Positions 4,656-37,559 of a DNA stretch of 37,559 bases are shown one piece after another. How positions within the stretch are numbered: position 1 is the stretch's first letter; the number at the start of each line of letters is the position of its first letter. The stretch is taken from IMG/VR virus record IMGVR_UViG_3300029790_000030, positions 1 to 37,559 of that record, one strand, 5' to 3'. The translations under genes and the position numbers were made by a program. The DNA comes from a virus. The notes under the pieces are model-generated. The model worked only from the letters and a program-made list of their open reading frames with translations. It had not been told where the DNA came from and did no database searches.

Positions 4656-4659
4656 TGTT

Positions 4660-5355
4660 ATGAGTTCCGATTTCGGGGGTTCCCAGCAGTATAAGTATCA
4701 GGGGCAGGCGGCTTTGAGCAACGGGCGCGCCACGCAGGCGGCTTATGAGAAGAAGGCCCGCGCCCTGGAGGCGGAGGCGGTTTCCGATTCCCACCTGGCC
4801 GCCCGCAATATGAAGCGGATGCGCCAGAATCAGAATGCCGCCATGGGGTCTGCACGGGCACAGCGCGGCGGATCCGGTTTTACTTCCGAGGGGTCCGGCA
4901 GCCAGGCGGAGGTGGCGGTGGCGGATGTGTGGGAGAGCGCCATTGGGGACGCGGCCCTTTCCAACGCTGTTTCCGATGCCAATAAGCGGTTTGCCGCGGA
5001 GTCCGCCCGATACCAGGGGGATCTGGCCATGATGGCGGCACGCAGCGAGGCGGACCAGTATAAGATGCTTTCACAGAATGCCCTTGGTTCTGCCATGATC
5101 CAGACGGCCCTGACGGCGGCGGGGGGTGTCATGGGGGCGGCAGGAATGTCCGGTGGCGGGTTGCTGGGGGGTGTTACCGAGAGCGGGCAGACGTGGGGTT
5201 CCGCCTCTGGAGGAACCCAGGGGGCTTTTTCCGGGATGATGAATGCTTATTCCCTTTCCGGTTCCCTGGGGGGGATGGTGCCGGGGAGCATGCAGTCTTC
5301 CAACAGGTTGAGGGATTCCCTGCTGGCTAATTTCATGGGTTTTGGAAAGAGATGA
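4660..5355 (+). CDS. Gly/Ala-rich internal virion protein, possibly T7 gp14-like
   Basis: 231 aa. The helical N-terminus (AYEKKARALEAEAV...NMKRMRQNQNAA) resembles the gp14 composition, followed by a long Gly-rich tail. Stop overlaps the next ATG. Confidence 0.35.
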   Translation: MSSDFGGSQQYKYQGQAALSNGRATQAAYEKKARALEAEAVSDSHLAARNMKRMRQNQNAAMGSARAQRGGSGFTSEGSGSQAEVAVADVWESAIGDAALSNAVSDANKRFAAESARYQGDLAMMAARSEADQYKMLSQNALGSAMIQTALTAAGGVMGAAGMSGGGLLGGVTESGQTWGSASGGTQGAFSGMMNAYSLSGSLGGMVPGSMQSSNRLRDSLLANFMGFGKR

Positions 5356-10600: not shown

Positions 10601-13600
10601 GACGCTGGAAGAGCAGCTTGCCGAACGCAATGCCGCTGATGAACCGGGGCCCGTGGACCGGGCGGAAGAAGAGGCCGACGACGCGAACGCCCAGCAGGCG
10701 CGGCGCGAACGCACGGAGGCGGAGGTAGAGATGCTGGGGGAACGGGATGATGACGGCGTGTTTAACGGAGGGGTGAGCATTCGTATTGAGGACGGGGTAC
10801 GCCAGGGTTTTATTGACAAGGACCGGCTGACGCTTTGCCCGGATGTTCCCCAGTTCAAGCAGGGAGCCGATGAAAAGACGGGGGTGGTGAACCGGATTGT
10901 GGGGGCCTGGCAGCGCAACGCCGCGCCGATTTCCGTGTGGCGCCGGACTGATGGTTCCCTGCAGGTGATTTCCGGCAGGCACCGCCTGGACGCCTGCACG
11001 GATGCGGATATTAACTGCACCGTGTACGAAGAGGGGGATCGGTTCAATCTGGACTGGGCCCGGAGGCACGACGTGGAGAACAATATCCGGGACGGCCAGG
11101 CGAGCGCGTTTGAGATTGCCCGCTACGTTCGGGATTCCTCCCTGTCCATGGCGGAGGCCGTGGAGCGCGGGATTGCCAGGAAGGGAGCCTCCCTGAAAGG
11201 GGTGGAGCTGGGTCTTTATGCCAGCCAGGAGCTTTTGGATGCGCTGGGCAACGGGCTGGTTTCCCCGGATGACGCCTACCGCGTGGCCCTGGCGTTCCGC
11301 AATGATGCCGAAGTGCAGCGTTCCGGGCTGGCCGTGCTGCTGGACGGCGGGAGCTGGCAGGAGGCTTATAATACCATGGCGGCCAAGGCGAACCTGGAAG
11401 CGATTGCCCGCCAGAATGCGGCCAACGGCATGGATATGGGCATGGACCTGTTCGGGAATACGGATAATGAAGAGCTTTACAAGCGCATCGGGAAGTACGC
11501 GGCGGAGAAGTACCGCGAGCTAGGCAAGGAGCTGACGGCGATTAACGGCGCTTCCCGGAATCCGAAGGTGGCCCGGAAGTACGGCGTGAATGTGAATGAC
11601 GCGGCGGCGGTGCAGCAGGTGGTGAAGCGGTTGCAGGAGGAACGTTCCCGCTGGAAGAATTTTGCCGTGCATCCCGATTTGCTTAAGGAGGCCAATAACG
11701 CCGTGATGGTGGAGATGGGGTTGAAGACGCAGGCACAGGTGGGTCAGGAGAATGGCGTGCTTCCTTTGGAGGCACCAGAACAGGAGGCGGATTCCGACGA
11801 TTCGGGGATGTTGCTGCTTTCCCAAGATGTGAACCGGATGCTGGAGGATTTTATAAAACGGGAGGAGGTTCATTTTTCCCTGGCCGGAGAGAATGAAGCA
11901 TTGCTGGCTCCCAATGGAGAGCCATCCCATCTGACGCCGCAACAGTACCGACAGGTAAGGACGCCAGAGTTTAAGCGGTGGTTTGGGGATTGGGAGAAGG
12001 TAGCCCGGTTCAAGGCAGCCGTGGAGAAGATTATGTCTATGGATCCGGTGGCAGCCATTTCCGGCCAAGAGTTCCAGAAGGACGGCATCCCCCTGACCGA
12101 AAAGGTGACGAAGTTCTGGAAGGAGCGTTTTAACGGAGTAGCCATTTCTCCCGAACTTGGAGAGGTGAGGCTTGATCTTGAAGGCGTGAAGTCTTCCATT
12201 GGACACGGCATCGGTTCATTGAAGTCCGCGGCTTTTGCCTGCGTAGAAGACGTGATCCGGAACGGCGTTGTGTTTGACCGTCAGAAGAATTGGAAAGAAC
12301 GCGGTTACGATACAGCGGTGATTGCCGCTCCCGTCACGATTAAGGGCGTGGAGTATGTTTGCGAGGTTGTTGTTGAGCAACGTACCAACAGACAGGGATT
12401 TTACCTGCATGAGGTGGAGATAAAGAAGAAGCTCGAAGACGTGTTCAAGACCTCCACTGAAGGAGGCACGCCCCAAGCTTCCAGAAGTATATTAGCCCTG
12501 CGAGCCGAAGATGTCAAGAGGGAGGAAGAGGGCATGTCCAAGGTGGTGGACGAGAACGGAGAGCCACTGGTGGTGTATCATGGCTCCCCGCATGTTTTTA
12601 CCGTGTTTGACGTGGAGCGTTCCGGAGAGAATTTTAACCGGAGCCGGGAGGATGGAGGGTTGTTGTTTTTTTCTTCCCTGCCGGAGACGGCGGAAGATGT
12701 GCTTCATGATTTAGAGGGCCGTTTTCCGGGGACCGGGTTGGAGAGTGCGCGGCTGTACGCGTGTTTTATGAGGTTGAGGCATCCGTTTACGCTGGATCTT
12801 GGCGATGCTTCACAGCGCCCGTTTTCCGGTGAGGGTGTGCCGGAGAGCGTGAAGGGTTCCCCGATGGCGTGGTATTTGTTTCCTCACGAGTTGAGGAGAG
12901 GGTTTGATGAGGGGAATGCTCATGGCGCAGGTTATGACGGTATTGTTTTGAAGGGCAGGAATGCTTATGACGGGAGTCCGGAGGTGTGGGGGATGGCTAC
13001 GGATTCCCGGCAGGTGAAGAGCGCTGCCGATAACCGCGGGACGTTTGATTCAGAGAATCCGGATATTACGTTTTCTATTATTGGGGAGAAGGCAGAATCC
13101 TTCATGGAGTACCACAATAACGGACTTTCCTACACGGATCCGGCGGACGGGAAGCGGAAGGCGATTATTGATTCCCGCGGGGTGCGGTTGAGGAAGGAGC
13201 ACGTCAGCGTGAGCGAAGGGGGGCATGTGAATGTTTCCCTGGCCGCGGCCCTGGATTTCCCGGAGTTGTTCCGGGCTTACCCGGAGCTGCGGAAGCTGAG
13301 GGTGGATTTTTACCGGGACAGCAGGAGCGGCACGGGAGGGTTTACCGATCCGCAGGAGCATTATATTGCCGTGAATGTGGCACGGGGCGGGAAGAACGCG
13401 GATGCCGGCATGGTGCTGGATACGATTCTGCACGAGGTACAGCATGTGATTCAGGGGTATGAGGGGTTTGCCCAGGGGGCCGGTCGCATGAGCCGGGATC
13501 AGGCGCTTGCTTATCTGGGCGAGAGCATGATCCAGCTGGCGGGCCGGGACGACGCCTGGGCGAAGGAGGCCCTGCCGCGCCTGGAACGGATGAGGCAGGA

Positions 13601-16600
13601 ACTGGAGGCCGGGACGTTGCAGCCGGCGTTTGTGTATGTTTTTTCCCACGGGGAGCAGGAGGCGCGGCTTGCCGGGAGGTTTGAGAAGAATAGCGAGGGC
13701 GTGGTGATGAGCGGCCTGAACGGGTTCCGCCTGCTGGACGCTCCGCCGTTTTCGATTCCGCTGACGGGGGATATTACGGAGCTTGGCGGCATTACGTTCG
13801 GGGGCGGGAGGTTTGGCCGGATGGCCGACAGGGTTTTGGCTCCGAACGGGGATTGGCTTTACGATGAGATGGTGTTCAGGATGCGGGCCGCCGCGCAGCG
13901 GTCCGTGAGTAAGCTGAATCTGTTTGAGACCGGGGACCGGGAGCTCGGCCTTGAGCTGCTGGCGGAGGCGCAGGAGCTGATTTCCACGGTGGAGCGGTTT
14001 CTTCCCCATACGTACGGGTTCGGGCTGGAACCGTATAAGATTTGGCTGAATGTGTTTTCCCTGCTTTACGGGAATAGCGGGAAGATGGCGCCGGATGAGG
14101 CGCTTTCCAGCGCGTTGAGCGCGATTCCCATGGAGAAGTGGCCGGAGATTATGGCGGGAAGTGTGATGAAGCATTTCTGGGGGTATGTAAAACAGCATGA
14201 GACGCTGGGGCCCATGTGGGAGGGTAAGATGAAGGAGTTTGAGGAAGAGGCGAAATTTGCCGAAGCCGGGGAGAAGGCCGCGGAATTGGATAAGCGCCGG
14301 TGGGAGTTTTTTATAGCGAATGGCGCGGAGTTCCTGGAGAAGTACGGGCAGGTGAAGGTGTACCGCCTGATTAGCAAGTTCATGGCCCGCGTGGTGGAAC
14401 AGATTGACCGTTACCGGAAGGACCGGACGCTGGGGCGCATCCGCCGCGTGGCGGCGTCCGTAGCTCCGCGGACGAATCCGAAGGGGAAGCCGCTGCGCGG
14501 GAAGATGGACGCGGAGAGTTACCGGAGGCTGGAGAGGTGCCTGCGCCTGCTGGAGATGACCGAGAGCCAGTACGATGAGTTTTTCCAGAAGAATTTTCCG
14601 GAGGATGCCGAAGAGGGGAAGAGGTGGGAGGATCTGGCCCCGGATGCGCTGGTGCTGGTGACGCTGCCCGACGCGGAAGGGAGGCTGGAAGAGGTGGCCG
14701 TAACGCAGCGGGAGTTGGAGGTTTACGCCTGTTATGAACGGATGGACGTGAATACTGCGGAGAAGTGCGGCGCGGCCCTTGGAGAATTGATTGCCACGTC
14801 CCGCCATGCCTGGGAGAACGCAGCGGAGAAGAAGAAGATGGAGGTTGCCGCCATGGCCGCCCCACTGCTGCAGGCCACCGGGGATTTGGATGATAGCAGG
14901 ATGGCGACGTTCCGCCGGAAGGCGAGGCTGCGGGCTTTGCCGAAGAAGCCCCTTTCCCTGTTTGATTATCTGATGAATTTTAATCAGTATATGCAGGCGC
15001 TTTCTTCCGTGGAGCCGTTTGCCGGGATTGCCCGCCAGTTTGAGGAACGGGCGGCGCGGTTTAATGTGCAGCGGCAGGCGAGCGAGAAGGAGATGCTGCG
15101 TTTTGTGCACAATACCGTAGCGGAGATTGCGGGGTCCGCGGACCGGTATGATATTGCCGAGTGGATTTATGAGGGGCGCATGAAGGAGGATACGGGGATT
15201 TCCGTTGTGGAGCGGGAACCGGATTGGAACAGGAAGGCCAACGCCCTGTACCGGGAACGCCTTCTTCATTTGCTGCGCCGGAAGGTGAAGTCCCACGGGC
15301 TGGAAGCGGTGCAGCTTTATTTGAGGGAGTTTAAGCTTTCCGAGGATTTGAAGAAGGAGGTGAACGCCCTGTTCGGGCACCGCCGCAAGGAGATTTCCGC
15401 CAAGCAGGCGAAGAAGGCATTGGAGCACATGGAGCGCGTGTTTACGCAGAAGGAGTGGGAGCGGTACGGGGACCAGAAGGTTTTTGTGAGGGAGCGGGCG
15501 GAGATGCTGCGTTCCAGGACGAAGTATGCCAAGGAGGGGTATCAGCCGAAGAGTTTCCGGCTGGATGGCCTGTCCCGGATGGAGGCGGCGTATCTGGTGC
15601 TGTTGTCCGAGCAGGCGGATTATACCGAGGCCCTGGCGGAACGCGGGTTTGACGCGGAGGTGATGGACCGGCTGCGCGGGTTTGCCGGGGATGAGGTGAT
15701 GCGGTTTGCGTATGCTTTACGGGAGAAGCTGAATGAGCGAAGCGGACAGGTGCAGGAGATGACCGAGAGGCGCTACGGCACGCCGTTTCCGCTGACGGAG
15801 AATTATTTCCGGGCGTTTCTCGATGTGACGATGGAGGCGATTGATAAGTCGATTGCCGATGCGGCGTCTTACGGGGAAGCGGCCACGGGCGGGAAGTTCG
15901 GGTTGATTCACGCCCGCCGGAAGCATCAGGCTCACCTGGATTTGGAGATGGATGTTTGCACGGCGTTTATGGCGGCCATGACCGAGCAGGATCTTTACCT
16001 GTACGGCTCCGAGATCAGCCGTGATTTGCGGGCTTTGCTGAATTTCAAGGGCGAGGACGGCGAGGCGGGCCGGAGCCTGGAGGTGCTGCTGGGGCGGGAT
16101 GCCGTGGGCAAGCTGATGGCCTGGGCGGATGCGTTTGACCGCGCCGGGGCGGAGAGTATTCGCGGGCACCTGGATATGAACCGCCTGATGAACCGGCTTT
16201 CCGGCGCGGCGGCGCGAGTGCTGCTGGCCGGGCGCGTGGGGACGCTGACCAAGCAGGCGACGACGGTGATTAACGCGATGTATGCTTCCGACGAGATTGG
16301 CCTTGCCGAGTGGCTGGGGGCCGTCCGCCGGTATCACGCCGGGAAGCTGGTGAAGCCTGTACGCGAGATAGAGGCCCTGCCGGAGCTGGACAGCCGCGAC
16401 AAGACGCGGTTCAGCGCCACGCTGGCTGCCATGGGGGCCGACGAGGCCGGGCGCCGGGTGTCCCGCCTGGAACGCTGGAACCGGGAGGGGATGGATTTGC
16501 TGGAACGGGTGGATATGAAGGGGAATGCGATTTCCGCGGCTATTTTGTACGATGCGGTTTACCGGAAGATGAAGCGTGAGACGCCGGACGCTGCGGAGGC

Positions 16601-17324
16601 CGAGCTTGACGCGGCCGCCATGGCGGAGGTGCGGCGCTCCCTGTCCCGCAAGGGTCAGCCGATGACGCAGTTGCAGAAGTCCCTGGCCGCGCAGCACCGG
16701 ACCTGGATGCAGGCGGGGATGTTGTTCCTGGGCGGCGAGTCGATCAATACGATGGGCAATGTGTTTTCCCTGGCCCGCAGCGGGCAATGGGGGAAGGCCG
16801 GGTTGATGTGGGTTTCTCACGGGGTGGTGCTGGCCCTTCTGAATGGGCTGCTTAATTTCATGACCGATGACGAGAAGCGCCGCCGGAAGCGGGAGTGGTG
16901 GCACGCCCTGTTTGATGTGGCGATGGGGCCCGTGATGGGGATCCCTGTCGTGAGCGGGCTGGCTGGCGAGGGGGTGAGGCAGCTTGCGAAACTGTGCGGG
17001 TATCACGCTTTTATGCCGGGGAATAATTTGCTGGTGCCTTTTTCCAATGCGGCGGATATCGGGAAGGCGTTTTCCAACGCCTGGAAGGTGTTTGACGGCA
17101 AGGAACGGCCCTGGGAGGATGACGCCCTTTCTTTCCACGAGCTTTTACGTACTGCGGCGGCGGGGACGGTGGCGTTTTCTCCGCGGACGACCAAGGGGGG
17201 CGCCGCTGCGGTAGGGGCTGCCCTGACGATGGCAGCGTTGCTGAATGTGACGGAGTTTGCCCTTAAAACAGTCCGCAGCGTTCAGGAGAACGGATCGGAT
17301 TGGGATAAGTGGGTTGGAAGATGA
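7662..17324 (+). CDS. Giant (3220 aa) polyvalent internal virion/ejection protein, T7 gp16 position
   Basis: Single uninterrupted ORF. Embedded ParB-like nuclease motif PISVWRRTDGSLQVISGRHRLDA (about nt 10900-11000). HExxH metallopeptidase motif DTILHEVQHVIQG (nt 13431-13445). YHGS segment resembling H-Y-E class ADP-ribosyltransferases (nt 12576-12587). Hydrophobic, Gly-rich C-terminal region (nt about 16700-17000). Confidence 0.7.
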   Translation: MFAQDVFERLGLSQDTDLLNDLQKEALLEPTEAAQSPYMDDPAYAGFETLRGLFGSNHGDNPSMYWLAQGEEMPEFATVADAQAAVWKDFQKKARAYQAEQERQQQAREALAATIDPFIDRYVRGDAVVPSPEQVMMMQEAGISWESVRRARRGMELVREYDAQGTLYDDRIINNLAEQVGDDELARRIVLNMFYNDARKYAKDKHGDEWTGIDWIDKAAQGVTGMVRTGGVKGWRTGQKAWRNLQVMGEVDAVTNAAKRLPELIASGMDVDEARAQIEKDATFLEIRRRWAADLVQTMEAGEKEYLEGEDRHLVGRIGSQLGSIIGDTAPWFIPAIGPAIGASSAMQSRRDEGVSIGLTMEETEKRAMMFGQADALEEMIAFSPIGRLTPGYKWLKKALGGGKAAGKLAPWRARWMASPKAQYAIQGLSGAAEEAILEPTAGYLMRTVQSMNLTDERGKQTFRQYLDDMGQMMHGEQGLALLAFTFGMSGFNYPQIKKAAQEFGLSLQHYKELGGTAQGYLEAREEKTAEGFLNKALANLHDSWMEDPQASMERASAAAGERLSGERIESLRELDAWRAAEDAGMVPRVEPAEQEGMFRVYAPARSPKAPREDASVSREGQEENAPSYTLMDGEQLTAYLQAFVSEQVESDILYTQHLLAGDVTVGQALAQGRFDAAEVITRTVTDEQTGAERVVIAPETLGQMKARADMAMAAIRALEAEGVSYEDAAARMDASLSEHLPLGTLVKTWEEAQERIRTEQARNPEFKAPAMDAPFSNAYVTKVRRGDTFRRVLRYARGNATVEDLMEETMEQAVISWQAEQGLTWGEFGAMLQEAQKSINELFPEARGEEMQFIHLDAGKPVTGHDAIEAFSKIGRSRWLADAVNHPSLPSWLRKLLNHLVKFLGAFKARVELGEMVRQAEEQGVFTLPVRQALAVMLDAGNALYRDQQGDLIVLTMERAKAQADLDAALGRGVATEQETLEEQLAERNAADEPGPVDRAEEEADDANAQQARRERTEAEVEMLGERDDDGVFNGGVSIRIEDGVRQGFIDKDRLTLCPDVPQFKQGADEKTGVVNRIVGAWQRNAAPISVWRRTDGSLQVISGRHRLDACTDADINCTVYEEGDRFNLDWARRHDVENNIRDGQASAFEIARYVRDSSLSMAEAVERGIARKGASLKGVELGLYASQELLDALGNGLVSPDDAYRVALAFRNDAEVQRSGLAVLLDGGSWQEAYNTMAAKANLEAIARQNAANGMDMGMDLFGNTDNEELYKRIGKYAAEKYRELGKELTAINGASRNPKVARKYGVNVNDAAAVQQVVKRLQEERSRWKNFAVHPDLLKEANNAVMVEMGLKTQAQVGQENGVLPLEAPEQEADSDDSGMLLLSQDVNRMLEDFIKREEVHFSLAGENEALLAPNGEPSHLTPQQYRQVRTPEFKRWFGDWEKVARFKAAVEKIMSMDPVAAISGQEFQKDGIPLTEKVTKFWKERFNGVAISPELGEVRLDLEGVKSSIGHGIGSLKSAAFACVEDVIRNGVVFDRQKNWKERGYDTAVIAAPVTIKGVEYVCEVVVEQRTNRQGFYLHEVEIKKKLEDVFKTSTEGGTPQASRSILALRAEDVKREEEGMSKVVDENGEPLVVYHGSPHVFTVFDVERSGENFNRSREDGGLLFFSSLPETAEDVLHDLEGRFPGTGLESARLYACFMRLRHPFTLDLGDASQRPFSGEGVPESVKGSPMAWYLFPHELRRGFDEGNAHGAGYDGIVLKGRNAYDGSPEVWGMATDSRQVKSAADNRGTFDSENPDITFSIIGEKAESFMEYHNNGLSYTDPADGKRKAIIDSRGVRLRKEHVSVSEGGHVNVSLAAALDFPELFRAYPELRKLRVDFYRDSRSGTGGFTDPQEHYIAVNVARGGKNADAGMVLDTILHEVQHVIQGYEGFAQGAGRMSRDQALAYLGESMIQLAGRDDAWAKEALPRLERMRQELEAGTLQPAFVYVFSHGEQEARLAGRFEKNSEGVVMSGLNGFRLLDAPPFSIPLTGDITELGGITFGGGRFGRMADRVLAPNGDWLYDEMVFRMRAAAQRSVSKLNLFETGDRELGLELLAEAQELISTVERFLPHTYGFGLEPYKIWLNVFSLLYGNSGKMAPDEALSSALSAIPMEKWPEIMAGSVMKHFWGYVKQHETLGPMWEGKMKEFEEEAKFAEAGEKAAELDKRRWEFFIANGAEFLEKYGQVKVYRLISKFMARVVEQIDRYRKDRTLGRIRRVAASVAPRTNPKGKPLRGKMDAESYRRLERCLRLLEMTESQYDEFFQKNFPEDAEEGKRWEDLAPDALVLVTLPDAEGRLEEVAVTQRELEVYACYERMDVNTAEKCGAALGELIATSRHAWENAAEKKKMEVAAMAAPLLQATGDLDDSRMATFRRKARLRALPKKPLSLFDYLMNFNQYMQALSSVEPFAGIARQFEERAARFNVQRQASEKEMLRFVHNTVAEIAGSADRYDIAEWIYEGRMKEDTGISVVEREPDWNRKANALYRERLLHLLRRKVKSHGLEAVQLYLREFKLSEDLKKEVNALFGHRRKEISAKQAKKALEHMERVFTQKEWERYGDQKVFVRERAEMLRSRTKYAKEGYQPKSFRLDGLSRMEAAYLVLLSEQADYTEALAERGFDAEVMDRLRGFAGDEVMRFAYALREKLNERSGQVQEMTERRYGTPFPLTENYFRAFLDVTMEAIDKSIADAASYGEAATGGKFGLIHARRKHQAHLDLEMDVCTAFMAAMTEQDLYLYGSEISRDLRALLNFKGEDGEAGRSLEVLLGRDAVGKLMAWADAFDRAGAESIRGHLDMNRLMNRLSGAAARVLLAGRVGTLTKQATTVINAMYASDEIGLAEWLGAVRRYHAGKLVKPVREIEALPELDSRDKTRFSATLAAMGADEAGRRVSRLERWNREGMDLLERVDMKGNAISAAILYDAVYRKMKRETPDAAEAELDAAAMAEVRRSLSRKGQPMTQLQKSLAAQHRTWMQAGMLFLGGESINTMGNVFSLARSGQWGKAGLMWVSHGVVLALLNGLLNFMTDDEKRRRKREWWHALFDVAMGPVMGIPVVSGLAGEGVRQLAKLCGYHAFMPGNNLLVPFSNAADIGKAFSNAWKVFDGKERPWEDDALSFHELLRTAAAGTVAFSPRTTKGGAAAVGAALTMAALLNVTEFALKTVRSVQENGSDWDKWVGR

Positions 17325-17528: not shown

Positions 17529-18356
17529 TTATACCCTTTTTCTGGGGGGATAAGAAATCCGCGTAACTCCAGATGATGTCTGTTTACGCACGCCTGAATG
17601 TTGTTTTTTAACAGGTCCCCCAATCCAGCGCAGGGTGTTATGAATTATACCGGAGTTGTCTTTCCACGAATAAAAGCAGTCTTCCAGTTGGGAGTAGAGT
17701 GGCATGATTGGAGAGAATTCCGCAACTCGCAATCCAATGATGGTAGTGACAATGTCTGCTATTTGAATACCTATGTTTTTAGCTTGAGATATGGCAAACA
17801 TAGGTATTTCAAGAATAGAGGATCTCATCTGACTACCAGGAGCGCTTTTGACAAGGAAATTGGTAATGGCAGCTGCATTCCTGCCGTTCGTTCCATCATC
17901 CCGGTTATCAATAATGATGATGGCTTTTCTCCCATAATGTTCCCGTTTCATATAGATATTGATACGTTCACAGAGACTTTTGAATGTAGCATCAAGAACA
18001 CCAGTGTCCTTGCAAGAAAAACTTTGCATGGCTTGGTCAAAACAGACACACCCAAATACCGTAATTTTACTTTTTTTCAAAAATTTGAGAATGGATTCAA
18101 TGAGTTTGATGTTAGTTGAGCCTTCGGGGCGCATCTCGTGTTGTTTGAAGGAGTACCGGGATAAGAGATCTTTTCCCTTCAGTTCAGAGTTGTCCGCGTA
18201 GTCTTTTCCAAGATGTTGAAGTTTTAATTTATAAATGGCATTGGCAATTTTTGTGTAGTCTCCAATAGGGATAGCTACTCCACACATAGCTCCAAATTTA
18301 TGTTTTTCTCCCCCTCTATCCAGTTCTCTAAATGTTTCATCCAAGAAAATCAACAT
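17529..18356 (-). CDS. DUF3800-family protein
   Basis: Begins MLIFLDETF (the DUF3800 N-terminal yIDESG-like hallmark) and carries the later IGIQIADIVTTIIG motif (QiADl-like). AT-rich gene in the cargo island. Confidence 0.55.
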   Translation of the reverse strand: MLIFLDETFRELDRGGEKHKFGAMCGVAIPIGDYTKIANAIYKLKLQHLGKDYADNSELKGKDLLSRYSFKQHEMRPEGSTNIKLIESILKFLKKSKITVFGCVCFDQAMQSFSCKDTGVLDATFKSLCERINIYMKREHYGRKAIIIIDNRDDGTNGRNAAAITNFLVKSAPGSQMRSSILEIPMFAISQAKNIGIQIADIVTTIIGLRVAEFSPIMPLYSQLEDCFYSWKDNSGIIHNTLRWIGGPVKKQHSGVRKQTSSGVTRISYPPRKRV

Positions 18357-18654
18357 ACCAATTATTTATGTGTTTTATATACCTAAAGTCCCGACTTCCT
18401 AAAGGGGCGTCACATTCCTTTGCAAGGCGGCGACAACGGATGAAAAACTAAATGAAAAAGGGTACAACCTCAAGGAAATATTGCACAACTATTTTTGGGA
18501 TATACTATATATTGTGGCATTATCCTTGATTTCAAGGAATATTTTTATTGTCTTGCGTGATTTTTCTGTCTAGTACTTGGCTTCATGTTCGTCCGACTGG
18601 TTGTCAAATACTTGAGGACTTGAGTTTTTGAGGATATAGGAATACCTTGGAGAA

Positions 18655-19401
18655 ATGAAAGGTTTACTGATTGCCATTTGCGTTTTCCTGGGGCTGGCAT
18701 TGTTGCCGATGCCCTACGGCTATTATATGTTCCTGCGGTTGGCTGTGTGTGCTTACGCCATATTTGTGTTTACCCAAGAGCAGAAGAAAGGGGTGTGTTT
18801 CGGGAGCGTATCCGCTGCCGCTATTGCTCTGCTTTACAATCCCGTCTTCCGGGTGCATTTGGAGAAGGAGGTCTGGATGTGGGTGAATATAATAACCATA
18901 TTATTATTCATCATTGTCTCGTTGCCATGGAGAGAGTTTGCAGAGACAAGAAGAGAACGAACAAGGAAACTTAAAGAGGAAGCAGAGAAAAGGAATGAGG
19001 AAAAATTTTATGGAGTGTATTATAAATATTTTAAAAGTAATTTGCTTCTTCCGAATTACTGTGTAAGATGTAAAGAAACTATAGACATATCTACAAGCAA
19101 AGATTTATTATGTCCTTCTTGTTATCAAAAAGTTCAAGAATTTATAGAGCAAGAAGAGAATGAATTTACGAAGACGGGAAATCTTCCCATGAAATTGAAT
19201 TTCAAATGTAAACATTGTGGAGCGAAAGAAAGAACAAGATCGTTTACATTTGGATTTTGCAAACCATGTTATTGGTCTCTTTGCGAACTTGAGTCAATCG
19301 CGAAGAAAGATTTAAAAGGCTATGAGCGATATAAAAAAAACATGCTGGCTATAAAAAAAGCAAGAACGAATAAAGAAAAAATCTATTGGCGTCCAGCATG
19401 A
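18655..19401 (+). CDS. Membrane protein with C-terminal double zinc-ribbon (four CxxC pairs)
   Basis: Three predicted N-terminal TM helices, a charged linker, then CVRC...CPSC and CKHC...CKPC. Confidence 0.45.
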   Translation: MKGLLIAICVFLGLALLPMPYGYYMFLRLAVCAYAIFVFTQEQKKGVCFGSVSAAAIALLYNPVFRVHLEKEVWMWVNIITILLFIIVSLPWREFAETRRERTRKLKEEAEKRNEEKFYGVYYKYFKSNLLLPNYCVRCKETIDISTSKDLLCPSCYQKVQEFIEQEENEFTKTGNLPMKLNFKCKHCGAKERTRSFTFGFCKPCYWSLCELESIAKKDLKGYERYKKNMLAIKKARTNKEKIYWRPA

Positions 19402-19565: not shown

Positions 19566-20042
19566 TTACAAAACCGCATAAATACAACCCGCAATTGTTA
19601 TAATAGGAGCAAACCAAACTAGTAGACCGCCAGCCAGATATGATGCTCTGTGACTAAATGTTCCATATAAAGCAATCCCTAATGATGTATCATAACATCC
19701 ATACATTTGTTTAGTTGTTTGATAGATACCGTTTGAAATAGATAGAGCATAAGTCATGATTAGTAACATAATCGGAATAAGTTCTAGACCTGAATAAAAG
19801 TATATCGCTGCAACATAAAACGAACTGATATAAAGAAGTATACTAATACTTGCTATGAACACTTGAAGACCGGGAGCCTTTTGTCCAAATACATACGCAT
19901 TGATAAGTTCCGGTATAGAGAGTATGAGATTCGCTATAGGCAACACAGCCAAGAGAATGAAGATGATAGCAGGTACATAGAGGCCGATGCAGAATGCCCA
20001 GATAAGTCCAACGAGTGAAATAGGGAGAAGAATAAGGATCAT
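19566..20042 (-). CDS. Polytopic membrane protein (about 5 TM), downstream partner of the YHYH gene
   Basis: 158 aa, almost entirely hydrophobic. Starts 24 nt after the stop of 20067-20351 on the same strand. Confidence 0.45.
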   Translation of the reverse strand: MILILLPISLVGLIWAFCIGLYVPAIIFILLAVLPIANLILSIPELINAYVFGQKAPGLQVFIASISILLYISSFYVAAIYFYSGLELIPIMLLIMTYALSISNGIYQTTKQMYGCYDTSLGIALYGTFSHRASYLAGGLLVWFAPIITIAGCIYAVL

Positions 20043-20066
20043 AGTTTTAAATTGCGCTGATTTTGT

Positions 20067-20351
20067 TTATTTTGCCCCGCCACAAATCTTGCAGTTCACA
20101 CCGCTGGGCGTATCGCTGGCTCGCCCTTTGCAAGCCCGGTAGTACCGGCAGTTTTTGTTATGGGTCTTGCCCGTTGAGCTGATCCAGTACGTTTTTTCTT
20201 CCGCTGCTGTTTTGGCCGCTGGTTTCCGGTGGTAATGATATTCCCCCGTTTTACGGTTGTAGTGACCACCGTTGGCGTCCAAGCCGCCAGGGTGCGCCTC
20301 CGAGAATGAAGTGAGGGAAATAACAGCTAAAATGAGAGAGAATAGTTTCAT
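20067..20351 (-). CDS. Secreted YHYH-motif protein
   Basis: Signal-peptide-like N-terminus MKLFSLILAVISLTSFSEA, a GGHYNRKTGEYHYH motif, and a Cys-rich C-terminus. Confidence 0.5.
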   Translation of the reverse strand: MKLFSLILAVISLTSFSEAHPGGLDANGGHYNRKTGEYHYHRKPAAKTAAEEKTYWISSTGKTHNKNCRYYRACKGRASDTPSGVNCKICGGAK

Positions 20352-20702
20352 GCAAATTCATAATACCATGAAATAAAGAGAGTTGTAAATAATTTGCTTA
20401 ACTCTTTCAAAGGCATTACGAAAGGATTATTTCCAACATTTATTTACATGTTTCACCTGCAGTTTATCGTTGTTTGCTAGAAGGGGCCGCGTGGAGGAAG
20501 GTATTACATTAACAAGAACGGGAATAAGACGTATATCAAAAGAAAATAAAAGCCCCCTGGCCCGGAGGCCAAGGGGCGAAGCATTCTAACGTAAAGAGGC
20601 TAAATAATAGCCTCTCTTCTCAGAATAAGCAACTCCTAAATCATTGTTTCAGTATCATTATGTGAAAATGCGTACTGGAATTGTTATTGAGGGAGTGTGT
20701 CC

Positions 20703-20736
20703 AACAAAAAGGAGCTGCCCCGATAGAGGCAGCTCC
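20703..20736 (-). terminator. Intrinsic terminator downstream of hicA on the minus strand
   Basis: Perfect 9-bp stem GGAGCTGCC/GGCAGCTCC (20711-20736). On the minus strand it is followed by TTTTTGTTGG, the reverse complement of 20701-20710. Confidence 0.55.
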
Positions 20737-20753
20737 TGAATAGAGTCAGGCTG

Positions 20754-20960
20754 TTAATCTTCCCAGGTTCCACCTGCAGCTTCAATAGCATCCCGTACTT
20801 CCCTGATCAGGTAAGGAGGTGCATTGTCTGGATCGTGGCCCGGGATAGTCACCGTCTGTCCATGAGGATGATCGTATACACGATGGGAACCTCGTCCTTG
20901 TCCTTGCTGCAGAATGAATCCGGCATCTCGTAACCGTCTGATTAGATCTCGTATTCGCAT
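20754..20960 (-). CDS. hicA: HicA-family mRNA-interferase toxin domain protein; no HicB partner found
   Basis: MRIRDLIRRLRDAGFILQQGQGRGSHRVYDHPHGQTVTIPGHDPDNAPPYLIREVRDAIEAAGG matches the HicA consensus (GSH...hp.g..vtiP.H....g.l..I). The ORF-track start at 20999 is a TTG; ATG at 20960 is preferred. Confidence 0.6.
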   Translation of the reverse strand: MRIRDLIRRLRDAGFILQQGQGRGSHRVYDHPHGQTVTIPGHDPDNAPPYLIREVRDAIEAAGGTWED

Positions 20961-21076
20961 AAGTGATGTTGAAGATACGAGAAGAGAGGAGAGTTTCAAT
21001 GGACGCTGTCCGAATGGAAAAATCAGCCTTTTTAATAGTCTAGATTGCTCGAAAGAAATGATTACCCTTTATTTAT

Positions 21077-22042
21077 TCAAATTATTTTACCAGGAAGGAT
21101 AATAAGACCGTTATCCACTATTTTTTTAGGAAGGAGCTTTCTATATGGAAAGCTTCCCATAGGAGTATCATGAAATACTTCATTTTCTATTTTGAAGTAA
21201 TTAGGAGATATATAAGAATTTACTATTTTTATTTCTGGTTTTTCAATATTTTCTAGTTGTAATTGTTTGTACCATTCTTGAACGTAGTGAACATTATGCG
21301 GAAACCTGACTCCAAGGACAATTCCAGATAGATATTGCAATATTTCTGAAAAAAATATATTCCCTTCATCATCTGTTGATGATGCATATTTTATTAAACA
21401 TAATAGGCGCATTTCTTTTTCAAAAAACCAAGATTTATCCTTTGTTATCATTAAATCTTCTATGACTTTTGGATTAAAAAGAGGGAATACATCAGAAAAA
21501 ACAACCCTATTTCTCTTATATAAAACATTATATAAGCAATTATGCAAAAAATCTTCATGTAATTTTTCTATTCTCCAATGATTGTAATTTGGCTCGTTGT
21601 GCGGTGTTACAGGTAATGAGAAAACCAGACACACTCCTTTATGCTTATCTGCGTAATGTCCCCACATCGCAGCAGATGATACGGATCTTGAAAAACAAAT
21701 TACTTGATGAGAGGAATGTTTAGTATAATCGTTATATGTTTTTCTGGCTGGTAAAAATTCAAAAATATCATTTGTTCTATAAGGATTTGTTCCTTTTATT
21801 CGCCATTCTCTGAGTATTTTTTTCGCAATTTCCCAAGACTGATAAATATAAAGGTCAACAACTTTGGGATTCATAAATTGCAATAAAGTTTCTTCATGTT
21901 CTCTAGAAGGAGCTTCCCCGTCTTCCACCCATTTATCTACATCCTTCTCTGAAAGACAAAAATTATGGGCTATCCACTTTTTATCTCTATTTGAGAATTT
22001 TAACCATTCTTTTATTTTTTCAGAATATGCAGAATTAACCAT
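21077..22042 (-). CDS. DUF2971-like protein
   Basis: 321 aa, AT-rich. Core VICFSRSVSSAAMWGHYADKHKGVCLVFSL resembles the DUF2971 hallmark as I recall it (c.S.s....MWs.YAd.hkGvci.F). Lies 77 bp upstream of hicA and 114 bp downstream of the repressor on the same strand. Confidence 0.45.
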   Translation of the reverse strand: MVNSAYSEKIKEWLKFSNRDKKWIAHNFCLSEKDVDKWVEDGEAPSREHEETLLQFMNPKVVDLYIYQSWEIAKKILREWRIKGTNPYRTNDIFEFLPARKTYNDYTKHSSHQVICFSRSVSSAAMWGHYADKHKGVCLVFSLPVTPHNEPNYNHWRIEKLHEDFLHNCLYNVLYKRNRVVFSDVFPLFNPKVIEDLMITKDKSWFFEKEMRLLCLIKYASSTDDEGNIFFSEILQYLSGIVLGVRFPHNVHYVQEWYKQLQLENIEKPEIKIVNSYISPNYFKIENEVFHDTPMGSFPYRKLLPKKIVDNGLIILPGKII

Positions 22043-22156
22043 GACTGTTTTTGAAAAAATTAAATAATAAAAACCATTCTTTTTAGCCGATATTTTATTG
22101 ATGAATACAAGTACAATATCAATATACTTTATATGTTATTGTTCAATTTTTTTGAA

Positions 22157-22969
22157 TCAAGCTTTCTCCCACCTGTCCAGCGTTTCCACATAGATGCCGG
22201 AGATTTTGCCGCCGTCCATGGGTTCGATGTCTCCGAAGTTGGGGTTGATGGGATGGAGGGTGTATTCCATTTTGCCGGTTTCCGGGTTTTTCCTGCGAAC
22301 CAGTTTTTTGAGCGTCACGCCGCGTTCATCATGGTATTGAACAATGGTTCCGGGTTTGGGGATGGGGGGGATGGTGTATTTTTTCATGATGACCACGGAG
22401 CCGTCCGGGATGGAGGGTTCCATAGAGTGACCGTTGACGCGCAGCAGGTATTCCCCTTTTTCCAGTTCACGGTATAGCCGGATGTCCTGCGGAATGGTGT
22501 CTCCATCCGCCAGGTTGCCGGCGGCAATGTTGCCGATGATTCGTCCCTGAGCCTCCAAAGGAGGGGTTGTGAATGTTTCTACCGGGGTAAACTGCTGGCT
22601 GGGAGCTTCTGCTTTCCTTTTCTGATGTGCCTTGGCTGTGACTTGAAGGATATGGGAAACCATATCCTCTATAGTTTTTTTTGCTTCATCCGCCATGGCG
22701 CGAAGTTGCTTTTCAAAGTCTGGCGGAAGCTCAAACTCAATTTCTTCCTCTCCTGACATCAGCTTTTCAATGAGTTCCATTTTTTGAGGAACGATCGGCT
22801 TTCCGGCAGAAAGCCAGTTATCCACCGTTCGCTTACTGACCAATGTTTTTTCAGCTAACCACGCACGGTCTTTCCCTATCTCTTTGAGCCACGTTTTGAT
22901 GTCTTCAGCATTGAGCATGTCAGCATTATGCACCAGAAGTGCATCAAGCGCAATAGAAATATTTACCAT
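22157..22969 (-). CDS. CI/LexA-type prophage repressor (HTH plus S24 peptidase)
   Basis: N-terminal HTH AWLAEKTLVSKRTVDNWLSAGKPI. C-terminal S24 signature VNGHSMEPSIPDGSVVIMKK with a downstream Lys (VTLKKL). The long ORF extension to 23224 is probably spurious; an alternative ATG lies at 22918. Confidence 0.65.
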   Translation of the reverse strand: MVNISIALDALLVHNADMLNAEDIKTWLKEIGKDRAWLAEKTLVSKRTVDNWLSAGKPIVPQKMELIEKLMSGEEEIEFELPPDFEKQLRAMADEAKKTIEDMVSHILQVTAKAHQKRKAEAPSQQFTPVETFTTPPLEAQGRIIGNIAAGNLADGDTIPQDIRLYRELEKGEYLLRVNGHSMEPSIPDGSVVIMKKYTIPPIPKPGTIVQYHDERGVTLKKLVRRKNPETGKMEYTLHPINPNFGDIEPMDGGKISGIYVETLDRWEKA

Positions 22970-23020
22970 TGATGCACCAGAAACGAAAAATAATGTTGAC
23001 TTAATTTCGTTCTGGGTGCA
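22930..23020. promoter_or_regulatory. Operator-like repeats in the cI/cro divergent region
   Basis: TGCACCAGAA occurs at 22930-22939 and 22973-22982. TGCACCAGAAACGAA (22973-22987) faces its near-perfect inverted copy TTCGTTCTGGGTGCA (23006-23020). The 17-bp spacer holds TTGACT, and TTGACA lies at 23025-23030. Confidence 0.5.
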
Positions 23021-23054
23021 TTTTGACAATATCAACAGCACGCAAGACGCGAAT

Positions 23055-23240
23055 ATGATCATCAACCTGAAAAAAGAAACGCAAGAAGTGCGGGAGTGGT
23101 TCCGGGAGGCGCAGGCCGCTACAGGCTTGAGCGGCCGGGCTCTCGTTATCGGCGCCATCATGGATTTCCGCCAGAAGGCAAAAGACCGTAGTCCACAGCC
23201 TCGGAAGAAGAACTCCGAACCCAAGAAGCCGGCAGCATGA
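23055..23240 (+). CDS. Small Cro-like DNA-binding regulator, divergent from the repressor
   Basis: 61 aa from the ATG at 23055 (MIINLKKETQEVREWFREAQAATGLSGRALVIGAIMDF...). Classic cI/cro layout. The long ORF 22884-23240 is probably an over-extension. Confidence 0.35.
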   Translation: MIINLKKETQEVREWFREAQAATGLSGRALVIGAIMDFRQKAKDRSPQPRKKNSEPKKPAA

Positions 23241-23773
23241 AAATAGAAGATTTAGTCGTCCGGATAGAGTTTCTTAATAGCAAATTGGGAGAGTCTAAAG
23301 ATACGCCATGTATTGGGGTGAATGCGGATGGTGCCAACATCGACCAGGAATCCTTTGTTTACGAGACAGCGGACGCTTTTGTCCGCAGGGTCGAGTTCAA
23401 GCTCGGCGCTCTGGGATTGAACAAAGGAAAGAAGCCTTTCCTTCTCGTCTTTGGGGAGACTTTGGAAGATACGTTCGTTCCTTTTCTCTGCGGCATGGTT
23501 GGAAGAAAGCTGGAGAAGATTGCCGCCAAGCTTCCCCATGATGCGCACCAGAATAATGGAAATACTAAACAGGAAGATGATATATGCGACGTGGTTGTAC
23601 TGGTTTGTCCACTCGGAGATGCCAAGTGGTATCAGAAGTTTCTCTGGGGTGATGAGGTAAATCCCGCTGGCACAAGCAAGTACGCAGTCCGTGTGTTTGA
23701 TGGCGAGCGTTTTAAGGAGCTCCGCGAGTGGTCCAAGCGTGGCGATTTCCATGGCCAGGACTTTACCCGATAA
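23237..23773 (+). CDS. Hypothetical protein (178 aa)
   Basis: ATGA overlap with the upstream small gene; protein-like composition. Preferred over antisense ORF 23252-23752. Confidence 0.4.
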   Translation: MKIEDLVVRIEFLNSKLGESKDTPCIGVNADGANIDQESFVYETADAFVRRVEFKLGALGLNKGKKPFLLVFGETLEDTFVPFLCGMVGRKLEKIAAKLPHDAHQNNGNTKQEDDICDVVVLVCPLGDAKWYQKFLWGDEVNPAGTSKYAVRVFDGERFKELREWSKRGDFHGQDFTR

Positions 23774-31207: not shown

Positions 31208-31796
31208 GAGAGATAAAACATCTATTGCCACAGAGAAGAAGAAGGAGTTTGCGAGGCTCTTGGTTGAGTCAAAATTGTCCAAGGCGGACGCTTATCGTAA
31301 GGCCTACAATCGCAAGGATATGAGTAATGACGCAGCCAGCAAGGCGGCATCCCGTTTGTCCAAGGATGGCGAAGTTTTGCGAATGATTGACGAATTGAAT
31401 GCCCAGTTGGACAGATCAGCGATTGCCACCAAGCAGGAATGCCTTGAATTTCTTACTGCTGTGTTGCGTACACCAATTGGAGAAGTGGGCGAAGATTCTC
31501 CTTTATGCCAGGAGGTTGCCTACACGGATTCAGGGATGCGCAAGAAGATGCCCGGCAAGATTGAGGCGGTGAGGGAACTTTCCAAGCTGGCCGGTTACAA
31601 TGAACCGGAACCGGTGGATGTACCAGGGCTTTCAAAGATTGCCGCAGTACTTGCCGGAACGAAACAGGAGCATCTTGTACATCCTGATAATGGCAAAGCC
31701 GCTCCAATTGAGTTTGATAGTGAGGAGGAAGCATCGGAAGACAAGGAACGCCGCCCAGGGTTACTAGACGGCGTGGGAAATGAACCGTTGGTTTAA
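31200..31796 (+). CDS. Terminase small subunit (Terminase_2-like)
   Basis: EKKKEFARLLVESKLSKADAYRKAYNRKDMSNDAASKAASRLSKDGEVLRMIDEL resembles the terS N-terminal HTH consensus. Confidence 0.5.
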   Translation: MPKRDKTSIATEKKKEFARLLVESKLSKADAYRKAYNRKDMSNDAASKAASRLSKDGEVLRMIDELNAQLDRSAIATKQECLEFLTAVLRTPIGEVGEDSPLCQEVAYTDSGMRKKMPGKIEAVRELSKLAGYNEPEPVDVPGLSKIAAVLAGTKQEHLVHPDNGKAAPIEFDSEEEASEDKERRPGLLDGVGNEPLV

Positions 31797-32767
31797 AGTT
31801 CTATTTCACACGATTCCAGACTTGGGTTGCCCTTTAACTTCATTTCGTTTTGAATAAATTGAATTTTATCTTCTGATATTTTTTCAATTTGCTCGTTTTT
31901 TTCAAACAATCCTTTATCTAAAAGATATTCTACTACTTTATTATAATTTAACAATCTACCTAAAGAATGCAATATTTGCCAATCTTCACCTAAAAAACTG
32001 TATTTTAGTATCTCCAAGTGTTCCATTTTTTGTTCAATATTTAAATTTTTGTTTTTAATTATAAATAATATAAGATTATATAAAGAATCAACCCAAGGTC
32101 TTATCATATTGACTTGCAAGATAAGAATATCAAAATTCAAAAAACCATTATTTTTAATAGTTGCATATACTTCACGCGACATATCCAGTGTATACACAAA
32201 GAATTTTTCCCTCTTTTTCCTTTCAATATCAGAAATAACCGATTCTATATGTAATTCCACCCTACTTAAATTAACATATAACATATTAATTGCATCTCTT
32301 CCGCTATCTCCGTAAATTTGGATTTCATCTTGAAGTCTTCTGATAATAGGAATCTGGTTGTAGAAAAAACTCTCAAACTGTTGAATTTTCATCAACTTAT
32401 TTTGAAGTTCAAATTCATTAGCCTGTCTTTCCTGCTCCCTGCATTGAGCCTTCAATTCCCTGCGTTGCAAACTCAATTCTCTTCTTTGAAGTTGAAGTTC
32501 TAAACGCTGCTGATGAAGAGCATAAATGAAACAAATGAAAGCGAATCCGGAAAACAAGGCATTTAAACCTCCGTACATATCACCACTGATTCCGAAACGA
32601 GAGGTTTCTGGAAAATTGATTCCTTCAAACAACCTGTCCGCTATACTAAGACTTCCCCATGTGATGAAGGGCCATGCAATGAAAAGTACGGAGACAATGA
32701 TGAGCAAGCCATACATACAATTCCGCTTTGAAGGTTTCTTTTTCGGAGAAGATTCTTGATCTGCCAT
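31793..32767 (-). CDS. AT-rich moron: two-TM membrane protein with long coiled coil
   Basis: 324 aa, antisense to the flanking late genes. Two N-terminal hydrophobic helices, then QQRLELQLQRRELSLQRRELKAQCREQERQ heptad-like repeats. Composition is strongly AT-biased relative to its neighbours. Confidence 0.5.
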   Translation of the reverse strand: MADQESSPKKKPSKRNCMYGLLIIVSVLFIAWPFITWGSLSIADRLFEGINFPETSRFGISGDMYGGLNALFSGFAFICFIYALHQQRLELQLQRRELSLQRRELKAQCREQERQANEFELQNKLMKIQQFESFFYNQIPIIRRLQDEIQIYGDSGRDAINMLYVNLSRVELHIESVISDIERKKREKFFVYTLDMSREVYATIKNNGFLNFDILILQVNMIRPWVDSLYNLILFIIKNKNLNIEQKMEHLEILKYSFLGEDWQILHSLGRLLNYNKVVEYLLDKGLFEKNEQIEKISEDKIQFIQNEMKLKGNPSLESCEIEL

Positions 32768-37464: not shown

Positions 37465-37527
37465 CTTAATGATAAAATCTGCCTTGTAAGCGGACGGTCG
37501 TCAGTTCAAATCTGACAAGCGGCTCCA
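37465..37527 (+). tRNA. tRNA 3' fragment (duplicate of 1-63)
   Basis: Same fold as the left copy, but no acceptor or D-stem complement upstream. Confidence 0.4.
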
Positions 37528-37559
37528 TCATAACCCGCTCAAGGTCAATCCTTGAGCGG
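37465..37559 (+). repeat. Right copy of direct repeat (putative attR core)
   Basis: Identical to 1-95. Upstream flank aatactttagtttgc does not complete a tRNA, so this copy is probably the displaced 3' fragment. Confidence 0.85.

Follow-up and report, generated by a model that had tools for sequence, protein, structure and literature searches.

A DUF2971 gene and a hicA gene as probably independent neighbours in a repressor-adjacent defence hotspot of an Akkermansia muciniphila phage

Genes and features downstream of the repressor

The window analysed here, meaning the whole stretch of 37,559 nucleotides that forms positions 1 to 37,559 of IMG/VR record IMGVR_UViG_3300029790_000030, is the genome of a temperate phage, with genes for terminase, adaptor, tail, endolysin, exonuclease and replication functions and a G+C content (GC) of about 53%. 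Its nearest records are Akkermansia phages, a sister prophage lies in a metagenome-assembled genome (MAG) of A. muciniphila, and by these sequence relationships the host is A. muciniphila. Immediately downstream of the cI-type repressor gene, on the minus strand, lie a gene for a DUF2971 protein and a gene for a HicA toxin, which a first-pass annotation of the sequence had joined with cI into a candidate lysogen-expressed defence module. The open reading frames (ORFs) confirm the tandem order that it described, with a gap of 114 bp between cI and the DUF2971 gene and of 77 bp between the DUF2971 gene and the TTG that opens the hicA ORF (116 bp if hicA is counted from its ATG). The features on which the analysis turns are the following.

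22157..22969, minus strand: gene for a cI/LexA-type repressor of 270 aa, with an Xre-type helix-turn-helix (HTH) and an S24 self-cleaving peptidase domain; alternative start at 22918
21038..22156, minus strand: low-GC cargo cassette between the cI stop and the hicA block, consisting of an AT-rich leader (22043-22156) and the DUF2971 gene
21077..22042, minus strand: HTH-DUF2971 gene, 321 aa, of the Aristaios/PDC-S31 family, predicted DarT-like ADP-ribosyltransferase
21872..22042, minus strand: N-terminal Xre/cI-type HTH of the DUF2971 protein, residues 1-57
21349..21355, minus strand: T7 homopolymer in the DUF2971 gene, T6 in loci L002-L005, where the alignment gives a truncation to 262 aa
20961..21038, minus strand: 78-nt block conserved upstream of hicA in an alignment of 18 loci with different cargo
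20754..20960, minus strand: hicA, 68 aa, homologue of the HicA-family mRNA-interferase toxins, with no HicB
20703..20737, minus strand: intrinsic terminator T1, directly 3' of hicA (stem 20710-20737 of 12 pairs, 8 of them G-C, then a T-rich tail)
20578..20702, minus strand: conserved non-coding element of 125 nt between T1 and T2, allelic to the gene for a protein termed P109
20543..20577, minus strand: intrinsic terminator T2 (11-bp stem, 9 G-C), common to element-type and P109-type alleles

The call of a CI/LexA-type repressor with HTH and S24 domains holds in Pfam (Peptidase_S24, E = 3.9e-10, above the curated cut-off) and in PHROG (phrog_4 'transcriptional repressor', E = 7e-14), and the protein has Ala-Gly at 150-151, GHSMEP at 180 and LKKL at 220, the Ala-Gly, Ser and Lys features expected for a self-cleaving repressor of the LexA/cI type. 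Its identity to the repressor of Akkermansia phage Chambord and to those of related phages is 64-72%, and its gene has a GC of 0.499.

A variable slot behind the repressor

For comparison, hicA-bearing loci were gathered from IMG/VR, Logan/ENA assemblies, phage Chambord and a MAG; the interval from cI to hicA was analysed at 44 hicA-anchored loci, and a separate survey was anchored on cI (52 loci). A scan of genome contigs with a single HicA sequence returned one A. muciniphila MAG and one distant match in Gemmatimonadota, and a scan of the same kind with a HicA alignment, whose patterns were too degenerate, gave no confirmed locus.

Two break-points in the homology between the window and Chambord, one coinciding exactly with the cI stop (22159) and the other, towards hicA, at 21037, delimit an insert of 1.1 kb and low GC. 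Within it, the DUF2971 gene, which had been described as AT-rich, has a GC of 0.306 and the leader in the gap upstream of it one of 0.193, compared with about 0.50 in the flanks. Across the 44 loci, hicA lies 1.2-3.5 kb from the cI stop, and the ORFs found in this interval make up at least 10 unrelated cargo sets. PADLOC recognises among them the set of the Chambord type (a C5 methyltransferase, C5-MTase, with NsnA/PD-T4-2_A, E = 5e-65, and a PD-T4-2_B-like gene), a P4 cII-like gene with 'beta'/PD-Lambda-2_C and capP, the A and B genes of PDC-M30 (E = 1e-76 to 1e-104) and a second PDC-S31 type (27% identical); further sets contain SecB-like, NYN, ClpP-like or HTH-M78 domains.

Judged by this gene content, the slot next to cI is a defence hotspot in the temperate phages of Akkermansia. 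Since the slot behaves in this way, the comparison with the lambda rexAB position, which had been made from the gene order of one genome, is apt: the same interval in related phages carries many known or candidate defence genes. As in lambda rexAB and in prophage or P2/P4-type defence hotspots, cargo on the same strand follows directly after the repressor, is bounded by conserved sequence and is swapped among sister phages. Unlike in lambda, the cargo is unrelated to RexAB, and the right boundary is a hicA cassette in about 42% of the related loci (22 of the 52 cI-anchored loci, the other 30 being without hicA). An operator motif shared by the cI-cro region, the cI-DUF2971 gap and the hicA leader was also considered and rejected, as the one common 10-mer, TTGATATTGT, is not beyond chance in AT-rich DNA.

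Co-occurrence of the DUF2971 gene and hicA

The one-operon model of the first-pass annotation gives the DUF2971 protein the part of an infection sensor, of an antitoxin that neutralises HicA in place of HicB, or of both. The arrangement of the locus lends itself to this model: the genes follow one another in the same orientation, no terminator-like site interrupts the minus strand from cI to hicA (22157 to 20999), and the DUF2971 protein has an extra HTH that resembles those of many antitoxins. In addition, every phage locus that has this HTH-DUF2971 gene has hicA as well. These loci, about seven, are confined to the window, L002-L005, L027 and L032; being about 95% identical, they were counted as one lineage, and the survey of gene neighbourhoods thus found the adjacency of the two genes in a single lineage rather than a conserved co-occurrence.

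Taken separately, the two genes have different distributions. Chambord has a hicA that is 91% identical to that of the window and no DUF2971 gene, and hicA as a whole is found with at least 10 other cargo sets, preceded in every cargo type by the same 78-nt block. In many loci, the cargo is separated from this block by a small ORF of divergent orientation, so that hicA cannot depend simply on read-through from cI. Conversely, DUF2971 genes of any type occur at 3 of 22 hicA-bearing and 3 of 30 hicA-less loci of the cI-anchored survey, and a second DUF2971 type that occupies the same slot is accompanied by hicA in L023 and lacks it in L083, L130 and L131. The homologue of the HTH-DUF2971 protein with 67% identity is encoded in an unrelated low-GC context with neither cI nor hicA nearby, and seven further DUF2971 contexts likewise show no hicA. 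No hicA was seen alongside three more distant DUF2971 homologues and three plasmid DUF2971 genes, in three of which six contexts the gene stands at a contig end with little downstream sequence visible. The neighbours of the DUF2971 genes differ in every unrelated context examined, and none is a conserved partner.

Also significant is the observation that in L002-L005, which come from four related samples, the DUF2971 gene is frameshifted (T7 to T6) and hicA is intact. This combination is incompatible with DUF2971 as the antidote of HicA, for which the loss would be lethal. The frameshifted allele (P0002) comprises 46 member sequences and is represented by 4 contigs from 4 samples, compared with 73 members for the intact allele (P0001). 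The one-operon model has also to contend with the difference in GC between the DUF2971 gene and hicA (31% versus 51%), which indicates different histories, and with the fact that a DUF2971 protein acts alone in Lactococcus. On these comparisons, a DUF2971-HicA pairing as one system is not supported, the proposed role of DUF2971 as antitoxin or sensor for HicA is not borne out, and the one-operon model, largely refuted by the distribution of its genes, is in our estimation very improbable.

In many relatives (L013 3756-3962, L034, L040 and others), the small divergent ORF, which is absent from the window, has its start roughly 12 nt away from the conserved block upstream of hicA and codes for a hydrophobic sequence rich in Gly and Ala (MKQVIRLGRVFGAAGGIASG...).

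The DUF2971 protein

The assignment of the protein to DUF2971 passes the family cut-off in a Pfam search (PF11185, E = 2.6e-7, 32.3 bits versus a cut-off of 22), and PADLOC places it in PDC-S31, a single-gene defence candidate (E = 6.6e-15). An exhaustive phmmer search returned 1862 relatives. Tyr 130, Glu 208 and Glu 210 are among the residues that are invariant in an alignment of 51 of these relatives, and the window protein has all three and with them the motif II Tyr and the motif III Glu-x-Glu of the ADP-ribosyltransferase fold. The protein core is modelled as a DarT-like ADP-ribosyltransferase carrying the invariant Tyr and Glu-x-Glu of the family, in agreement with a published study that predicts DUF2971 to be a DarT/AbiGi-like ADP-ribosyltransferase with an ExE motif and a Tyr that is strictly conserved (PMC12522546). 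To this core is added an N-terminal HTH, about 31% identical to the HTH of the phage's own cI protein. As most members of the DUF2971 family are without such a domain, the protein is best described as a member, with a fused HTH, of a known family of single-gene defence systems.

The characterised system with which it can be compared is Aristaios, a single-gene antiphage system of 316 aa with a DUF2971 domain and an abortive-infection phenotype, from the Lactococcus plasmid pUCCL641_199 (PMC11381338), which corresponds to the PADLOC candidate PDC-S31. In both cases, a single DUF2971 protein of about 320 aa with a predicted ADP-ribosyltransferase fold is encoded on a mobile element and has no conserved partner. 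The window protein differs in its extra N-terminal Xre-type HTH and in its setting, the immunity arm of a prophage in a Verrucomicrobial host, and is known here by its sequence. PLSDB, in which the Aristaios plasmid was sought, gave matches to distant DUF2971 genes only and no Lactococcus record. DarTG, in which DarT is paired with the macrodomain antitoxin DarG, has a component for which no counterpart is seen in the window, where no macrodomain family is found among the Pfam matches of the ORFs.

A relationship between the N-terminal 95 residues of the DUF2971 protein and full-length P109 (BLASTP, E = 2e-4) was considered and rejected: the HTH of about 50 aa is all that the two share, and beyond it the alignment covers DUF2971 core sequence, which homologues without an HTH possess as well. 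A second homopolymer in the gene, an A7 tract at 21121-21127, is A6 in two of L002-L005; the homopolymer-length alleles may reflect on/off switching of the defence gene, or its decay.

The hicA cassette

The ORF of hicA extends from 20754 to 20999 if read from its TTG, and the homologues favour the ATG at 20960, which gives a protein of 68 aa. It had been described as a clean HicA domain, and the Pfam search agrees, with HicA_toxin (PF07927) at E = 3.4e-13 and 49.9 bits against a cut-off of 27; the PHROG match is phrog_353 'toxin'. Gly 24, His 26 and Arg 27 are invariant in 15 HicA homologues, with His 26 forming part of a GSH motif, and the equivalent His is required for toxicity in the HicA proteins that have been studied (PMC11594946). 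From its median dN/dS of 0.25 over 18 distinct alleles, hicA (GC 0.507) is intact and under purifying selection, features from which the protein most likely still cuts RNA.

The 78-nt upstream block is the probable promoter and leader of hicA, containing a sigma-70-like TTGAAA-16-TATCTT at 20999-20972, a consensus match only. At the other end of the gene, the strong intrinsic terminator noted in the first reading is confirmed as T1, which is kept in all hicA loci with one compensatory pair. A terminator after hicA is also found in the hicAB operon of an IncI2 plasmid (PMC11878559). The window gene resembles type II hicAB in having a HicA_toxin domain with the conserved catalytic His and in being prophage-borne, as are several hicAB loci. 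It differs in that the position of HicB is filled by a non-coding structured element or, elsewhere, by a small Xre-type protein with no HicB fold. The absence of HicB that had been reported for ORFs of at least 60 aa extends to smaller ones: none of the 42 window ORFs scanned, including those below 60 aa around hicA, matches a HicB-type Pfam family, and tblastn of the window with the HicB of an Akkermansia phage found nothing. A canonical pair, consisting of hicA (85 aa) and hicB (145 aa; HicB_lk plus HTH_3), is located 1-2.5 kb away in some relatives, and such pairs occur in the flanks of 4 of the 44 hicA loci; the HicA of the window shares about 50% identity with the one in the canonical pair.

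Two allelic forms of HicA, of 68 and 72 aa, have identical N- and C-terminal segments and differ in the central third around the catalytic His alone, which looks like mosaic recombination or diversifying change. In Chambord (L001, ON453894), the intact 68-aa hicA at complement(4779..4985), 91% identical, is unannotated in GenBank, which has instead an overlapping CDS on the opposite strand (4656..4958, 'hypothetical protein').

Two probably independent cassettes side by side

We consider it likely that the DUF2971 cassette and the hicA cassette are not partners but independent neighbours, brought together by modular shuffling in a repressor-adjacent accessory arm. The first (21038-22156) would be a horizontally acquired, low-GC, single-gene defence gene of the HTH-fused Aristaios/PDC-S31 type. 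In a lysogen, its transcripts would come from read-through of cI, from a start in its own AT-rich leader, or from both; infection by another phage would activate the enzyme, whose ADP-ribosylation of nucleic acid (or protein) would then abort the infection, and the HTH would either autoregulate the gene or tether the enzyme to DNA. The second (20543-21038), comprising the upstream block, hicA, T1 and the short non-coding element ending in T2, would be a self-contained unit, carried by approximately two-fifths of the related phages irrespective of the content of the hotspot. Of the reading proposed initially, the position of the genes, the membership of the DUF2971 protein in a defence family, the lack of HicB and the structured spacer stand; DUF2971 and HicA as a joint system is not supported.

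Several observations weigh against this account. hicA is present at all of the roughly seven phage loci with the HTH-DUF2971 gene, though these count as one lineage. Co-transcription with cI and the promoters proposed above are predictions, and the 14 promoters found by the scan are within what chance would give (11.5 expected). The link to Aristaios is made through the shared Pfam family and PADLOC, and expression in the lysogen is deduced from the repressor and from the relatives, no integrase having been found in the window either by tblastn with the integrases of the relatives or among the Pfam matches of the scanned ORFs. The most serious difficulty is that an intact RNase toxin without an antidote is hard to reconcile with stable lysogeny, which implies that the account misses something. 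It is the sequence downstream of hicA that bears on this difficulty.

The region between the terminators T1 and T2

The first-pass annotation had allowed for a small or an RNA partner of HicA in the spacer downstream of the gene. The former finds no candidate, there being no ORF of at least 30 aa on the minus strand of 20352-20683 and only open frames of 2-10 codons in the element itself; as regards the latter, a conserved, structured element does accompany hicA. In a survey of 67 hicA loci, which were not de-replicated, the interval from T1 to T2 contains the element in 46 and an ORF for P109 (109 aa) in 17, is cut by the contig end in 3 and holds neither in just 1; among the 44 hicA-anchored loci, P109 lies downstream of hicA in 13. 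T2, which shows a compensatory change from GC to AU in L026 and L040, matches Chambord 4309-4348, just after the stop of P109. A pattern search for the element gave 26 IMG/VR loci, in 20 of which hicA is directly upstream; the other 6 have no hicA match, two of them being on contigs with a decayed hicA-like remnant.

According to RNAalifold, the element forms a 21-bp imperfect hairpin at 20578-20636 that abuts T2, and in the window copy the stretch 20545-20660 folds at -50.6 kcal/mol, far better than shuffled sequences (z = -5.4). In all five variable pairs of the hairpin, the only exchanges are those between G-C, G-U and A-U; of the changed cells, 13 are still paired and 1 is broken, a pattern that fits an RNA read from the hicA strand. 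Pair counts across loci reveal no two-sided covariation, and an Rfam scan of 19900-23400 with E up to 1 found nothing. Conservation of the element core amounts to 86-100% among loci in which the HicA proteins are up to 45% different, and a -10-like TAATGATACT is aligned with TATGATAAT of P109.

These data can be read as evidence that the hicA cassette is a toxin-antidote unit with the antidote between T1 and T2, in the form of a structured RNA of approximately 95-125 nt here and of the Xre-type P109 elsewhere. Either the hairpin would sequester HicA, a protein with a fold similar to that of double-stranded-RNA-binding domains, or it would prevent HicA expression in some other way. Such a unit would be compatible with the explanation preferred above for the DUF2971 gene, and it would account for the occupation of the same place, with the same T2, by either the element or P109, for the conservation of the element core despite the divergence of HicA, for the stability and pair changes of the hairpin and for the aligned -10-like sequences; a terminator between hicA and hicB, moreover, has a precedent in a plasmid hicAB operon (PMC11878559). 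Set against this are the missing two-sided covariation and Rfam family, and the resemblance of the element to a deletion derivative of the P109 cassette: it resembles the ends of that cassette and has its 3' end sequence in common with it, and L083 and L130 have a truncated start of P109 and, after it, a degenerate element whose hairpin is broken. The element also persists after decay of hicA in L074, L086 and L121. With regard to type I and type III systems, in which a transcribed RNA pairs with the toxin mRNA or binds the toxin, the element is structured and conserved; it shows no two-sided covariation, and its complementarity to the hicA leader is not kept between loci. Antisense pairing with this leader was rejected, as a perfect match of 11 nt between a hairpin arm and the leader in the window is lost in other loci, with 3 mismatches in L031.

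P109 itself does not provide the missing HicB. The possibility that it is a HicB-type antitoxin that has been lost from the window was rejected, because its model consists of an Xre HTH and two helices with no HicB fold, Pfam gives only weak HTH matches and the protein is absent from most hicA loci; other Akkermansia prophages have homologues, with 72-77% identity, that are not next to a hicA, a further point against the T1-T2 antidote. On balance, a toxin-antidote unit of this kind appears unlikely, though not negligibly so. The element as the RNA partner of HicA is marginally more doubtful, and it may alternatively be a deletion scar; the full proposal of an interchangeable downstream module, with a small structured RNA (21-bp hairpin and terminator) in this phage and an Xre-type protein in its sisters, is a little less likely again.

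The difficulty of the unpaired toxin could be resolved in another way, which we likewise regard as unlikely and place on a level with the toxin-antidote unit: HicA may be rendered harmless in trans by a HicB from another prophage or the host chromosome, or may be repressed in lysogens and used only in lytic growth or superinfection, in which case the element would be a neutral scar. The canonical hicA-hicB pairs of some relatives, the presence on A. muciniphila chromosomes of another prophage-borne pair (a HicA with an HTH_3/MqsA-like protein) and the scar-like appearance of the element, with its similarity to the P109-cassette ends and the degenerate copies of L083 and L130, are all consistent with this. 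HicB is found, however, in the flanks of so few hicA loci, and the identity of about 50% to the HicA of the canonical pair makes cross-neutralisation uncertain. The strict either/or linkage of hicA with the element or P109 would also be left without explanation.

In the three loci with decayed hicA, L074, L086 and L121 (~11.3-11.8 kb), the remnants are pseudogenised, divergent and hicA-like, ending in ..KAIKKSDGTWEY and a stop with several stops upstream, and T1, the element and T2 are still intact after them.

Flanking genes and other features of the genome

Two conserved features frame the region described above.

22884..23240, plus strand: divergent ORF in the cro position, taken from the ORF list, which marks the immunity switch region
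20067..20351, minus strand: gene for a secreted, YHYH-like small protein (weak Pfam YHYH match, E = 3e-4), 96-98% identical in relatives

The first of these, which probably starts at an internal codon, has a 74-aa homologue at the same place in L027 and no Pfam match; its position suggests a cro-like role. The conserved gene that comes next in the lysogeny arm is the YHYH-like one. The interval between it and T2 (20352-20542 in the window, 8515-9263 in L027) is a second variable slot, holding two lipoprotein-like genes (118 and 127 aa) in L027, the closest relative, and none in the window. The integrase of the relatives is located beyond the YHYH gene; in the phage of the window and in L027, this integrase arm is replaced by more accessory genes at 17529-19401, namely a minus-strand gene (17529-18356) for a DUF3800 protein and a plus-strand gene (18655-19401) whose product is a DUF6804 membrane protein containing zinc-ribbon motifs.

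The ends of the window, 1-95 and 37465-37559, form an exact direct repeat of 95 bp that contains a sequence resembling the 3' part of a tRNA gene (..GGTCGTCAGTTCAAATCTGACAAGCGGCTCCA), for which ARAGORN reports no complete tRNA; the repeats may be att sites or the overlap of a circular assembly. Located among genes of the plus strand, with the small terminase gene on one side and a tail gene on the other, is an ORF of 324 aa and 32% GC on the minus strand (31793-32767), whose only match is phrog_8999, of unknown function, with Pfam and PADLOC negative; it is probably a second acquired accessory gene. A single ORF of 3220 aa (7662-17324, plus strand) takes up a quarter of the genome and presumably encodes a tail or tape-measure-type protein.

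Implications for Akkermansia phages and HicA toxins

The comparison identifies a repressor-adjacent defence hotspot in the temperate phages of A. muciniphila, a gut bacterium of medical interest, and shows the cargo that this phage carries in it, while removing a tempting but false 'new two-gene system' from consideration. The fusion of an Aristaios-type enzyme to a repressor-like HTH could clarify how such single-gene enzymes are controlled or targeted. A HicA without HicB, followed by the element or by an Xre gene, would, if functional, extend the ways in which HicA toxins are controlled; should the antidote indeed lie between T1 and T2, this would be the first RNA-controlled HicA system (type III-like or decoy), with protein and RNA antidotes as alleles at one locus.

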